Positions 8,264-12,306 of a stretch of DNA of 64,000 nt are shown here, in pieces. Positions within the stretch are counted from its first letter, which is position 1; each line of letters opens with the position of its first letter. Under the pieces are notes generated by a model. That model worked only from the letters and a program-made list of their open reading frames with translations, did not search any database and had not been told where the DNA came from. The DNA comes from Escherichia phage N4. The DNA lies in sequence record NC_008720.1. One strand, given 5' to 3'. The position numbers and the translations under genes were made by a program.

Positions 8264-9092
8264 GTACATTGCAGTAGCAATTGCAGGGCTAATCATTGCT
8301 CTAAGTTTAACGAGCTGCTATGACCGAGTTGAACCAGGTAATGTAGGTATTATCGTTAACCGTCTCGGTGAAGATAAAGGCGTGGAAAATGAGGTTAAAG
8401 GTGTAGGCCGTTACTGGCTCACTTGGAATGAAGAACTTTATACATTCCCGACCTTTAAGCAGATGAAGACCTATGATGGTCTGTTCTACTTCCAACTGTC
8501 TGATGGTACTCAGATAGGCCACCAGATGGCTATCAGCTATAAAGTAAATCCTACTAAGGTAACTAATATCTTCCAGACGTATCATAAGGGAGTTAATGAA
8601 ATTACCGAACAGGATTTACGCCAACGTATTGCTGATGTACTTAACAGGCAGGGTAACCTGATTAACACCGATACATTTATTGATGGTGGTAAATCTAAGT
8701 TACTGGATAGTGTCACGGACACAATCCGTAAAGAGATGGAACCAGTGGGGATTGATATTATTGCTATCTCCTGGATTGGTGCTCCTGAATACCCTGATAA
8801 CGTTAAACGTGCCATTAATGCCAAAGTAGAAGCTACTCAGAAAACTCTGCAACGTGAGCAAGAGATTCAGCAACGCGTAGCTGAAGCTAATATGGAACGT
8901 GAACAAGCTAAGGGTGTAGCAGATGCTATTCTGATTAAGGCTAAAGCAGAGGCTGATGCTATTCGTTTACGTGGTGAAGCACTCACCGAGAACCCAAATG
9001 TAATGCAACTGGAAGCCATTAATAAGTGGAATGGTACATTACCTACCACAATGATTCCTGGGGCTACTACACCTTTCGTTAATGTGAAATAA
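8256..9092 (+). CDS. SPFH/band-7 (prohibitin/HflK-like) lipoprotein (278 aa)
   Basis: N-terminal signal with lipobox-like LTSC; VEPGNVGIIVNRLG SPFH-type core; C-terminal coiled coil (EATQKTLQREQEIQQRVAEANMEREQAKG). Confidence 0.6.
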   Translation: MYKYIAVAIAGLIIALSLTSCYDRVEPGNVGIIVNRLGEDKGVENEVKGVGRYWLTWNEELYTFPTFKQMKTYDGLFYFQLSDGTQIGHQMAISYKVNPTKVTNIFQTYHKGVNEITEQDLRQRIADVLNRQGNLINTDTFIDGGKSKLLDSVTDTIRKEMEPVGIDIIAISWIGAPEYPDNVKRAINAKVEATQKTLQREQEIQQRVAEANMEREQAKGVADAILIKAKAEADAIRLRGEALTENPNVMQLEAINKWNGTLPTTMIPGATTPFVNVK

Positions 9093-9099
9093 CTAAGCA

Positions 9100-9128
9100 A
9101 ACCCACCATTACGGTGGGTTTATTTTTT
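9100..9128 (+). terminator. Rho-independent terminator
   Basis: Stem AACCCACC/GGTGGGTT followed by TATTTTTTG. Confidence 0.75.
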
Positions 9129-9154: not shown

Positions 9155-9379
9155 ATGAAAGTAAATGTTTTACGTCGTAAGAAAGTTCCTTTCTTTCAAA
9201 TCAATTGTGGTTCATGTTTTCAACACGATGATGACTACTATATGAAGTGTAGTTATCAATCTAAAGAACACTTCTATGGTGTGAATTTACAAACAGGTCA
9301 TCTGTTCACATTTGATAATAATGACTTTGTTTATCCTGTGACTTTAGAAGCATGTATTCCTGACCCACTTAATAAATAG
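9155..9379 (+). CDS. Hypothetical Cys-containing protein (74 aa)
   Basis: ORF track. Confidence 0.45.
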   Translation: MKVNVLRRKKVPFFQINCGSCFQHDDDYYMKCSYQSKEHFYGVNLQTGHLFTFDNNDFVYPVTLEACIPDPLNK

Positions 9380-9380
9380 T

Positions 9381-9737
9381 ATGGCTCAAGAAAAGAATCG
9401 TCGTCAGACACTTATCGAACGTATTCAGGCCAGAATCAAATTACAGGACTTAGGCTATACCGTTAATGGTCAGCCTAGTCTCTGTCACATCTGGACTGGT
9501 TCACATTCAGGTAATGGACGTGGTGGGCAATATGGCAGGATTTCCGTGAATGGAGTTACCTCTGCAACTCACATTATTGCCTATACCCATTATCATGGTT
9601 ATATCCCCAATAAGATGCAAGTAGACCATCTCTGTAATAATCGTCTGTGCTGTAATCCTGAACATCTTGAATTGGTTACTCACCAAGAGAACCAGAGAAG
9701 AAGGGCTAAGCGTTCTAAATCTAAAGGAAATAAATAA
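9381..9737 (+). CDS. HNH homing endonuclease (118 aa)
   Basis: CHIWTGSHSGNGRGGQYGRISVNG...HIIAY...VDHLCNNRLCCNPEHLELVTHQENQ, a typical HNH_3 signature. Confidence 0.75.
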   Translation: MAQEKNRRQTLIERIQARIKLQDLGYTVNGQPSLCHIWTGSHSGNGRGGQYGRISVNGVTSATHIIAYTHYHGYIPNKMQVDHLCNNRLCCNPEHLELVTHQENQRRRAKRSKSKGNK

Positions 9738-9908
9738 ATGATTAAAAAACTTATTTGTAAACTTATTGCAGCAATCTTAATTAGTATTATTGGTATTGCA
9801 TGGGTAGTTTCTACTCCAGATAACGTTATGCAACAACTTTATTATGCTGTGTATACATCAACCTCTTTTGTTTGGGTTTATGTAATGTACCGTATTTGCA
9901 GCGACTAA
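9738..9908 (+). CDS. Small membrane protein (56 aa, below ORF-track cutoff)
   Basis: ATG directly after the HNH stop; two hydrophobic segments. Confidence 0.35.
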   Translation: MIKKLICKLIAAILISIIGIAWVVSTPDNVMQQLYYAVYTSTSFVWVYVMYRICSD

Positions 9909-9937: not shown

Positions 9938-10996
9938 ATGGCTAGTATTGATTCTATTGCCGTATGTAATCCACGGCAGGTACGTAAATTTGTTGAACAC
10001 TGTATCCGTTCAGGATTGGTTCCATTTATCACTTCATCCCCTGGCATGGGTAAATCTGCAATTGTTCATCAGATTGCAGAAGACTTTGGCCTGAAACTGA
10101 TTGACCATCGTCTGTCTACTTCAGCACCAGAAGACCTGTCAGGTCTGCCTCGTTTTAAAGAGAATGGCCGTGCTGAATTTGCCCCATTTGATGAGCTATT
10201 CCCACTGGAAGGGGATGCTGTACCTGAAGGGTTTAATGGCTGGCTTCTCTTTCTCGATGAGTTTAACTCTGCTCGTAAAGAGATTCAGGCTGCTGCTTAT
10301 AAACTGGTACTCGACCGCATGACTGGTCAAAAAAAACTGCATCCTTATGTAGCTATCATATGTGCTGGTAACAAAGCAACTGACCGTGCCATTACTAACA
10401 ACCTGTCTACAGCTATGCAATCACGTCTTATTCATCTGGAAATGGAGACTGATTTTGATGTCTTCATGGAAGATGTAGCGATTCCTAACAAATGGGATGA
10501 ACGTGTAATTGCATTCCTGAATGCTAACCCAAATAAACTGAATGATTTTGAACCAGACCATCAAGAGAAGACTTTTTGTTGTTCTCGTACATGGGAGTTC
10601 GTTAACAAGATTGTTTCCATTCTCCCGCCAGGACCAATTGATAGTGAAATGACTCTGCTGTTAGCAGGCACTATCACTTCTGGTGTAGCAACATCATTCG
10701 TTCAGTTTACTCAGGTCTATAGCAACATGGTGTCTTTGAATGAGATTTTAGATAATCCTAAGAAAGCTCGTATGCCTGAAGACAATAACCTGTTGTGGGC
10801 TGTAGTCACTTCACTAATTAACAATACTGACGAAGATAATCATTCGAAAATCTTTGATTATGTTGAACGTATGCCATTTACGTTCAAGGTTTTGTACTAC
10901 CGTTCCGTAGGTAGTCTGGTTCCAGCTTTGGTTAAATTACCGAACTGGCGTGTTGCTGCAATCACATTATCTAAATACGTTCATGGTTCCAATTAA
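9938..10996 (+). CDS. MoxR-like AAA+ ATPase (352 aa)
   Basis: Walker A SPGMGKSA, Walker B LLFLDEF; partnered with the downstream vWA protein. Confidence 0.8.
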   Translation: MASIDSIAVCNPRQVRKFVEHCIRSGLVPFITSSPGMGKSAIVHQIAEDFGLKLIDHRLSTSAPEDLSGLPRFKENGRAEFAPFDELFPLEGDAVPEGFNGWLLFLDEFNSARKEIQAAAYKLVLDRMTGQKKLHPYVAIICAGNKATDRAITNNLSTAMQSRLIHLEMETDFDVFMEDVAIPNKWDERVIAFLNANPNKLNDFEPDHQEKTFCCSRTWEFVNKIVSILPPGPIDSEMTLLLAGTITSGVATSFVQFTQVYSNMVSLNEILDNPKKARMPEDNNLLWAVVTSLINNTDEDNHSKIFDYVERMPFTFKVLYYRSVGSLVPALVKLPNWRVAAITLSKYVHGSN

Positions 10997-11162
10997 CAAA
11001 AAGGGAGTTACAGACCTCCTGTATGTTGCTGGCTTTAACGGTAAAGAAATTACCGTATATGCCCCAAGTCTGGCTGCTGCTAAACAAAAGGCAGTTGAAT
11101 ACTTTCGTCCAAAGAAACGTGTAGCCCATACCATTTGGGTTCATCTCGCAGAGGAAAACTGA
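10983..11162 (+). CDS. Small hypothetical protein (59 aa)
   Basis: ORF in the gap between the AAA+ and vWA genes; start uncertain (track start 10950). Confidence 0.3.
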   Translation: MVPINKKGVTDLLYVAGFNGKEITVYAPSLAAAKQKAVEYFRPKKRVAHTIWVHLAEEN

Positions 11163-11163
11163 T

Positions 11164-12306
11164 ATGTCCATAACAGATGCTCAATTAACCCGTGAATATG
11201 ACAGATGTCAGGCTAAAGCCTTTATGGGCAAAACTGCTGCATTCTTTGGTTCACTGTTATGTTCTCTGAAGTTCCGTTGGGTAAAAGATGGCTGTGATAC
11301 AGCACAAACCGATGGTGAGCATCTCGAATGGAATCCTGATTGGTTTGAGAGTCTATTACCTGAATCTCGTGTAACAGTACTCATGCATGAACTATGGCAT
11401 GTCGGCTTACTGCATTCTGTTCGTATGGGTTCTCGTGACCCAGAAGTATGGAATTATGCCTGTGATATTTATATCAACAATCAGCTTATTCAGGATGGCC
11501 ACAGCTTTATAGGAATCGAAAATTGCTGGAAAGACCCTAAGTATGCTGGTTGGGCTGAAGAACAAATCTATGATGACCTCATGAGCAAACAGATACGTCC
11601 TCCTAAAGCATTTGGTGCTTTTGGGACTGGCTCAGGTGGTGACATGAAACCTTCCACTTCGAAGGCTAGTCAGGTGAATATTGTCAATAATGTAGTAAGA
11701 GCCATGCACCAACAGAAACTATCTGGTGGTTCTTTGCCTGGGGTATTACCTGGAAAAATGGAAGAAGTTATTACTCAATTCCTGAAACCAGTAGTACCGT
11801 GGCAGGTTTTACTTGAACGCTTCTTCAATGACCTGCAAGAAACTTACTACTCATGGCAACGGCCTAATCGTAGATACCCTGATATGTACCTACCATCTCC
11901 TATGGATGATGACGGTAGACTGGAACATCTGGCTTATTTCCTTGATACATCTGGCTCCATTAAACCTAAAGATGCCTTACGCTTTAGCTCTGAAGTGGCC
12001 TATGTAAAAGAGAAATATCAGCCTCAGAAGATGACTCTAGTTCAGTTCACTACAGAGATTGTAGATGAACAAGTCATTGAAGATGGTGACAAGTTTACTG
12101 ATGTCACTATCAAAGGACGGGGTGGTACTAGTCTGGTTCCTGTACGTGAATGGATTATTAAGCATAAGCCTACTGCTGCCATTATCTTTACTGACTTAGA
12201 AGTCAGGCCGATGGAACCATTGCCATTTGACATTCCTGTCATATGGGTAGTTATTCGTAACCCTGGTGCACAAGTTCCATTTGGGAAAGTTATTAACATT
12301 ACATGA
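11164..12306 (+). CDS. vWA-domain protein with N-terminal HExxH metallopeptidase-like region (380 aa)
   Basis: HELWH motif; MIDAS-like DTSGS in the C-terminal half; typical partner of MoxR-type ATPases. Confidence 0.7.
   Translation: MSITDAQLTREYDRCQAKAFMGKTAAFFGSLLCSLKFRWVKDGCDTAQTDGEHLEWNPDWFESLLPESRVTVLMHELWHVGLLHSVRMGSRDPEVWNYACDIYINNQLIQDGHSFIGIENCWKDPKYAGWAEEQIYDDLMSKQIRPPKAFGAFGTGSGGDMKPSTSKASQVNIVNNVVRAMHQQKLSGGSLPGVLPGKMEEVITQFLKPVVPWQVLLERFFNDLQETYYSWQRPNRRYPDMYLPSPMDDDGRLEHLAYFLDTSGSIKPKDALRFSSEVAYVKEKYQPQKMTLVQFTTEIVDEQVIEDGDKFTDVTIKGRGGTSLVPVREWIIKHKPTAAIIFTDLEVRPMEPLPFDIPVIWVVIRNPGAQVPFGKVINIT

Follow-up and report, generated by a model that had tools for sequence, protein, structure and literature searches.

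Does a small HNH nuclease gene in a phage genome mark a recent insertion? The question is raised by gp22 of Escherichia phage N4 (NC_008720.1), the middle one of three open reading frames (ORFs), gp21, gp22 and gp23, in the 64,000-nucleotide stretch that was analysed here and is referred to as the window. The gene labels are the N4 names given by other annotators. Small free-standing HNH genes of phages are routinely labelled selfish homing endonucleases and taken as signs of recent insertion, and a preliminary description of this locus read gp22 in the same way. N4 gp22 has been described as a 'putative homing endonuclease', and its roseophage orthologues carry the label 'N4 gp22-like' (PMC2784036). 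In our analysis gp22 showed none of the evolutionary marks of an active homing endonuclease, namely empty-site polymorphism, recent arrival and degeneration. We consider it probable that gp22 is an ancient HNH nuclease with an intact catalytic site, passed on mainly by vertical descent, which is kept for the benefit of the phage and is not currently spreading.

Sequence, predicted fold and catalytic residues clearly place gp22 among the HNH_3 / His-Me finger (ββα-metal) nucleases. Residues 62-106 of the protein match Pfam HNH_3 (PF13392) with an E value of 8.6e-20 and 70.6 bits (cut-off 24.8), covering positions 2-46 of the 46 in the profile, so that the free-standing HNH_3-type nuclease gene of the preliminary description was borne out. 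Further matches were obtained to zf-His_Me_endon (28.8 bits, cut-off 27) and to the family phrog_1872 'endonuclease' (E=5.5e-46). In an alignment of 43 diverse homologues R7, C35, W38, G44, G48, Y51, H64, G73, P76, D82, H83, C85, C90, N92, H95, L96 and N104 are invariant, and the catalytic core is kept in 91 of 91 gp22-family copies. Residue roles were assigned by analogy with the homing endonucleases I-HmuI and I-PpoI. On this basis D82-H83, N92 and N104 likely form an HNH(N) catalytic arrangement of the I-HmuI type, and C85, C90 and H95 are likely zinc ligands together with C35, which like H64 lies upstream of them. A catalytically inactive DNA-binding regulator of nuclease origin, comparable to the DNA-binding domains of SMAD MH1 and NFI, is very unlikely in view of the D-H...N...N residues, invariant in all homologues, and of an HNH_3 profile that is matched end to end.

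A search of solved structures with the gp22 sequence returned only chance kringle matches. The AlphaFold2 model is a confident single domain (predicted local distance difference test score, pLDDT, 91.4), and structure comparison placed this predicted fold nearest to I-PpoI and I-HmuI. Because of the residue pattern and the confident single-domain model we regard gp22 as a compact nuclease, in which a DNA-binding beta-hairpin/sheet, a zinc site and the active site are predicted to share one domain of 118 residues; a separate DNA-binding domain would be unnecessary. I-HmuI of phage SPO1 (PDB 1u3e), a nicking homing endonuclease of the HNH type, is intron-encoded, comprises 174 amino acids (aa) and carries additional C-terminal DNA-binding modules. 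Despite the similar predicted fold gp22 differs from it in being free-standing, shorter and single-domain, in its Cys/His cluster and in behaving as a vertically inherited gene. I-PpoI (PDB 1a73/1cyq), a His-Cys box enzyme, is the product of a eukaryotic group I intron, and the dimeric enzyme cleaves rDNA. Here too the predicted fold is similar, with a sequence identity of only 16-19%. The earlier term homing endonuclease holds for gp22, the annotated N4 member of phrog_1872 with its N4-like orthologues, as far as the predicted fold is concerned, but is not supported by its evolutionary behaviour.

The HNH gene had also been taken as the mark of a recent or mobile insertion, a view that neither its distribution nor its divergence and composition sustained. 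Fourteen Enquatrovirus genomes, PMBT57, OLB145 and AlfredRasser among them, share 98% identity with the N4 region, and the gp22 protein is 100% identical in 14 of the 14 sequenced genomes of this genus. Moovirus Moo19 has gp22 at the same site, directly after the SPFH gene. In Kaypoctavirus, Inbricusvirus, Dongdastvirus and Johnsonvirus it is found in the interval between the RNA polymerase II and ATPase genes, although its exact site is not fixed, and Rothmandenesvirinae, Erskinevirinae and at least 25 metagenomic N4-like loci also carry it in this interval. Within the retrieved set the gene order was RNA polymerase II, HNH and ATPase at 25 loci and SPFH, HNH and ATPase at 6. This shared location, exact in Moovirus and by interval in the other lineages, largely refutes recent mobility of the gene. 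Presence in all relatives, as such, applied to Enquatrovirus, Moovirus and most sampled N4-like phages, but gp22 is missing from Gamaleyavirus ECBP1 and is hence not universal. An empty-site allele with conserved flanks was found neither in Enquatrovirus nor in Moovirus nor in the ECBP1 interval. In ECBP1 small ORFs of unrelated sequence take up the whole interval, which therefore contains no vacant site with conserved flanks.

In each genome compared with N4, gp22 was the best or near-best conserved shared gene. Its identity to the N4 protein is 90% in Moo19 (gp24: 62%), 87% in Kaypoctavirus, 62-63% in Rothmandenesvirinae and Erskinevirinae, 56-59% in Pseudomonas phages, where DNA polymerase reaches 40%, and 52% in roseophages. 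Pairwise NG86 estimates were used for the ratio (omega) of nonsynonymous (dN) to synonymous (dS) divergence. Between N4 and Moo19 gp22 has a dN of 0.079, a dS of 1.14 and an omega of 0.07, and the flanking genes have a dS of 1.1-3.1. Similarly, third-position identity of gp22 between N4 and Kaypoctavirus is 46%, like that of the flanks. For 15 further lineage pairs omega was 0.02-0.09 in the 12 with computable dS, and in such pairs gp22 and the core genes around it have roughly similar dS. Constraint, rather than recent transfer, therefore explains the high conservation of gp22. One contig pair (L042 and L044) had an HNH distance of 0.15 at a core distance of 0.67, but a recent transfer of the HNH gene was ruled out in this case because synonymous sites are saturated. 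Overall, HNH distances followed core-gene distances (Mantel r=0.71, p=2e-4, n=34). None of the 91 family copies contained a disrupting stop, and no degraded copies were seen. With a GC content of 0.415 (z=+0.3) and a z value of -0.06 for GC at third codon positions (GC3) gp22 is typical of its genome. Taken together, dS, composition and synteny rule out a recent insertion or transfer of gp22.

These data bear on the explanation that gp22 is an actively selfish free-standing homing endonuclease, which would cut gp22-less alleles during co-infection and be copied into them with no benefit to the phage. Such an element would account for a fold nearest to genuine homing endonucleases, for the patchy distribution and subfamily-dependent positions of the family, for relatives in unrelated phages and for variable DNA on both sides of the gene, and it agrees with the 'putative homing endonuclease' annotation (PMC2784036). 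However, close relatives show no presence/absence polymorphism (14/14 Enquatrovirus, same site in Moovirus), and dS equals that of the flanks in every measurable pair. Low omega values, genome-like composition, co-divergence with core genes and the lack of degraded copies (0/91) are likewise at odds with it, as is the absence from gp22 of the extra DNA-binding module found in the HNH_3 protein ECBP1_0048, which adds a weak AP2 match. We therefore regard purely selfish homing as unlikely.

Two records touch on the integrity of gp22 copies. The vB_Eco_Jura record (L003, 2781-3138) lists gp22 as a pseudogene. Its translation nevertheless agrees with the N4 protein at each of the 118 positions (100% identity), and the pseudogene label seems to have arisen in annotation. 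In Pseudomonas phage PAP02 (L013, 6753-7339) residues 5-115 of gp22 are matched by the orthologue in a single frame (7001-7333), and the annotation lists a truncated 63-aa 'HNH endonuclease' together with an overlapping out-of-frame hypothetical ORF. The short HNH annotation of Litunavirus is probably a gene-calling error that recurs across many records.

Mobility of the gp22 family becomes visible, as judged from sequence comparison, on deep time scales only. In Litunavirus the gp22-like gene directly precedes rIIA, in Rhodovirinae it directly follows rIIB, and in ZC08 it is placed upstream of the dCTP deaminase gene; different positions were thus seen in PAP02, R7L and ZC08. Outside the N4-like phages, relatives with 43-64% identity were present in Vibrio PP270, Skulduggery and the high-GC contig L022, where they are located amid small early-region genes and never beside terminase. 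In a neighbour-joining tree, which was calculated without bootstrap and is used descriptively, most gamma- and betaproteobacterial N4-like copies form one clade regardless of gene position, and the roseophage copies group with contigs that are not N4-like. An orthologue was not found in 67.8 of the 69.9 kb of ECBP1, nor was gp22 seen in the 15-kb ATPase-centred loci, the only part covered, of Vibrio, Salmonella TR2, Acinetobacter Presley and Rhizobium N4-like phages. PA26 was discounted as a further HNH-negative phage, as its locus stopped short of the rIIA-side position of the Litunavirus gene. Over long time scales the family thus shows a sporadic distribution and presence in unrelated genomes, as homing elements do.

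ECBP1 offers an instructive contrast. Its gene ECBP1_0048 (L099, 9019-9516; record 26918-27415), located downstream of DNA polymerase, encodes a 165-aa HNH_3 protein whose C-terminal region is AP2-like (E=0.0015, below cut-off). Like gp22 it has the HNH_3 catalytic motif and is free-standing in the replication region of an N4-like phage; unlike gp22 it carries the added C-terminal region, and gp22 for its part has kept both its sequence and its place. In the 64-kb N4 window a counterpart was not detected, the only match being to the HNH motif of gp22 (31% over 68 aa). From these comparisons ECBP1_0048 looks like a canonical sporadic homing endonuclease, in contrast to gp22. In Vibrio phage JA-1 (NC_021540.1, 19536-21187) the gp24-like ATPase matches in two pieces and the annotation reads 'ATPase (x2) | HNH endonuclease', which suggests that an HNH gene has inserted into the ATPase gene, likely a genuine mobile insertion in a distant relative.

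If gp22 is the stable part of the locus, which parts vary? Among all ORFs of the window gp21 (GC 0.316, z=-3.0) and gp23 (GC 0.310, z=-3.2) are the compositional outliers, and gp22 between them is typical. gp21 was found in Enquatrovirus loci only, with a dN/dS of 0-0.11 within the genus, and gp23 has only a 44% identical relative, in Kaypoctavirus, which lies two ORFs after the HNH gene, not adjacent to it. For these reasons gp21 and gp23 were ruled out as partners of the HNH gene. A conserved upstream partner was likewise excluded, as the gene at this position encodes SPFH in N4 and an AAA ATPase in Frozen, and in phiAxp-3 and inbricus a protein that matches no family. Accordingly, gp21 and gp23 are the recent-looking genes and gp22 is the stable element. 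In the SPFH cassette gp19-gp20, N4 gp20 shares 79-81% amino acid and 78% nucleotide identity with the SPFH genes of distant N4-like contigs, whereas RNA polymerase, ATPase and gp25 of the same contigs reach no more than 25-39% identity to N4. A gp22-like HNH gene is always directly next to the cassette, which precedes it in N4 and Moo19 and follows it in the contigs L046, L048 and L052; at the corresponding place the near-identical sister contigs L047, L054 and L050 carry another segment. From these identities it looks as if the cassette has been exchanged horizontally between distant N4-like phages.

What, then, might gp22 do? Since the literature on gp22 function, knockdown screens and N4 transcriptomics gave no usable biochemical or genetic data, its activity, target and benefit are inferred. 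The invariant HNH active site, the fold, the location, purifying selection, dispensability and the turnover of cassettes lead us to propose that gp22 would bind DNA and introduce a metal-dependent site-specific nick or cut, and that it would have been retained in the long term through a benefit to the phage. The likeliest benefit may arise during co-infection, where gp22 would interfere with related genomes or subject them to gene conversion, as this fits the homing-endonuclease-like fold, the dispensability of the gene and the exchange of adjacent cassettes. gp22 would then act as a stable anchor around which accessory cassettes (SPFH gp19-gp20, gp21 and gp23) are swapped.

The gene lies in a co-directional early/middle block together with RNA polymerase II and genes of replication and nucleotide metabolism. 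This surrounding, which is kept throughout, the invariant active site and a conservation equal to or better than that of DNA polymerase and helicase would also suit a housekeeping enzyme, which makes a specific nick for the initiation of replication or recombination, processes branched or concatemeric DNA or helps to generate genome ends. We hold such a role to be conceivable but rather doubtful, and rank it behind interference or conversion. Third in this order comes a host-directed function, in which gp22 would cut or nick a conserved sequence of the host chromosome or of a plasmid, or a defence element, and so aid takeover. The identity among phages of very different Proteobacteria and unrelated phage types is unusually high (45-65%) and would fit a conserved target; the enzyme closest in structure, I-PpoI, has a highly conserved rDNA sequence as its recognition site. 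Nevertheless, many N4-like phages of the same hosts are without gp22 and N4 is not known to degrade host DNA, and we regard this function as improbable. Small phage HNH proteins kept for a phage function are known from the terminase-associated HK97 gp74 type (GVE2 HNH, 5h0o; Gme HNH, 4h9d), and in this respect gp22 would resemble them. However, gp22 is not found by terminase or portal genes but among early/middle genes of the + strand between gp20 and gp24, and its closest structural match is not of the minimal GVE2/Gme type. A packaging accessory was therefore ruled out, with no terminase adjacency at any of the loci examined and a weak fold match.

Several points weigh against a nuclease that is retained for the benefit of the phage. 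As judged from its absence in ECBP1, gp22 appears to be dispensable for the N4-like life cycle, and it was not seen in the ATPase-centred loci of the Vibrio, TR2, Presley and Rhizobium phages. The shifted gene positions in Litunavirus, Rhodovirinae and ZC08, the relatives in unrelated phages and the patchiness of the family are also expected of a selfish element over long times. Moreover, the swapping of cassettes beside gp22 may reflect a generally variable early/middle region. A more far-reaching version of the favoured reading sees the gp22 family as a domesticated I-PpoI/I-HmuI-like nickase with a conserved target, which has persisted through hundreds of millions of phage generations and serves as a fixed recombination anchor, with its breaks or its unusually conserved DNA driving the exchange of adjacent cassettes such as the SPFH module between distantly related N4-like phages; the target might be located in the genome of the phage itself or in a host sequence that is conserved universally. 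We put this forward as speculation, with a limited chance of being correct.

The features of the locus are compiled in the following table. The three ORFs were present exactly as first described, and the characterisation of the flanks as a cysteine-containing ORF and a membrane peptide agreed with our predictions. The location between the SPFH cassette and the AAA+ gene was confirmed by Band_7 and PHROG matches.

Features of the gp22 locus of phage N4 and SPFH cassettes of distant N4-like contigs
Feature	Coordinates	Strand	Basis
gp19 membrane protein and gp20 SPFH lipoprotein (cassette)	8021..9092	+	gp20 = Band_7, E=1e-23
Terminator-like hairpin with T-run 3' of gp20	9099..9121	+	9-pair stem, T-rich tail
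gp21, 74 aa, ATG start, 4 Cys, unassigned function, accessory	9155..9379	+	phrog_7431, E=2e-24
gp22, 118 aa, single-domain HNH_3 / His-Me finger nuclease, predicted I-PpoI/I-HmuI-like fold	9381..9737	+	Pfam, AlphaFold2
gp22 C35	9483-9485	+	invariant column
gp22 HNH_3 core, residues 62-106	9564..9698	+	Pfam coordinates
gp22 D82-H83	9624-9629	+	invariant columns
gp22 N92	9654-9656	+	invariant column
gp22 N104	9690-9692	+	invariant column
gp23, predicted membrane peptide, 56 aa, accessory	9738..9908	+	phrog_23946, E=4e-37; hydropathy
gp24, MoxR-type AAA ATPase, conserved family gene, synteny anchor	9938..10996	+	PHROG ATPase family, E=2e-136
SPFH cassette, contig L046	10667-11754		gp20 similarity
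SPFH cassette, contig L048	10333-11360		gp20 similarity
SPFH cassette, contig L052	10652-11675		gp20 similarity

gp21, gp22 and gp23 are separated by 0-1 nucleotides: one nucleotide lies between the gp21 stop and the gp22 start, and the ATG of gp23 directly abuts the gp22 stop. The hairpin parts the SPFH gene from the three ORFs and precedes the start of the gp21-gp22-gp23(-gp24) block; the annotation of vB_Eco_Jura also shows a terminator at the corresponding point. On the 5' side the block is preceded by a gp17-like superinfection-exclusion gene, a small membrane protein and the SPFH/Band_7 lipoprotein, and on the 3' side it is followed by the MoxR-type AAA ATPase, a DUF2201 metallopeptidase/VWA (von Willebrand factor A) protein and a dCTP deaminase. 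The PHROG families of gp21 and gp23 have no assigned function. A zf-UBP match of gp21 stayed under the cut-off. gp23 aligns with its family end to end and contains a single N-terminal segment of strong hydrophobicity (Kyte-Doolittle mean over 19 residues up to 2.3). The Pfam AAA matches of gp24 fall slightly below cut-off.

Besides, three further genes of the window deserve mention. A 70-aa ORF at 10950-11162 overlaps the 3' end of gp24. Relatives carry it as an annotated gene (bas69_0056), and in phiAxp-3 a counterpart with 58% identity occurs downstream of the ATPase; judged by these matches it is probably a real small gene. The adjacent gp25 (11164-12306) matches the Pfam DUF2201_N metallopeptidase (E=3e-87) and the VWA-like DUF2201 domain (E=1e-46). 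Both its PHROG family (phrog_1314) and several GenBank records (Moo19, VLCpiP4b, phiAxp-3 and Presley) label it 'HNH endonuclease', which looks like a propagated mis-annotation. gp14 (4142-4528) encodes 128 aa without a Pfam match and is 48-84% conserved across N4-like subfamilies. A gp14 homologue adjoins the gp22-like HNH gene immediately downstream in Rhodovirinae and immediately upstream in Klebsiella-type contigs.

The practical gain from these results is modest because gp22 has long been annotated. What is new is that the reading as a selfish, recently inserted gene is wrong for gp22, and this correction is mainly of interest to phage genomicists. In N4 the situation is the opposite of the one commonly assumed for such genes: judged by selection, synteny and composition, it is the HNH gene that is stable and under constraint, and mobility is found in its neighbours. 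If gp22 has been co-opted for a phage function, N4 would be a tractable model for the role of a conserved minimal HNH protein, a question that extends to hundreds of similar phage genes.
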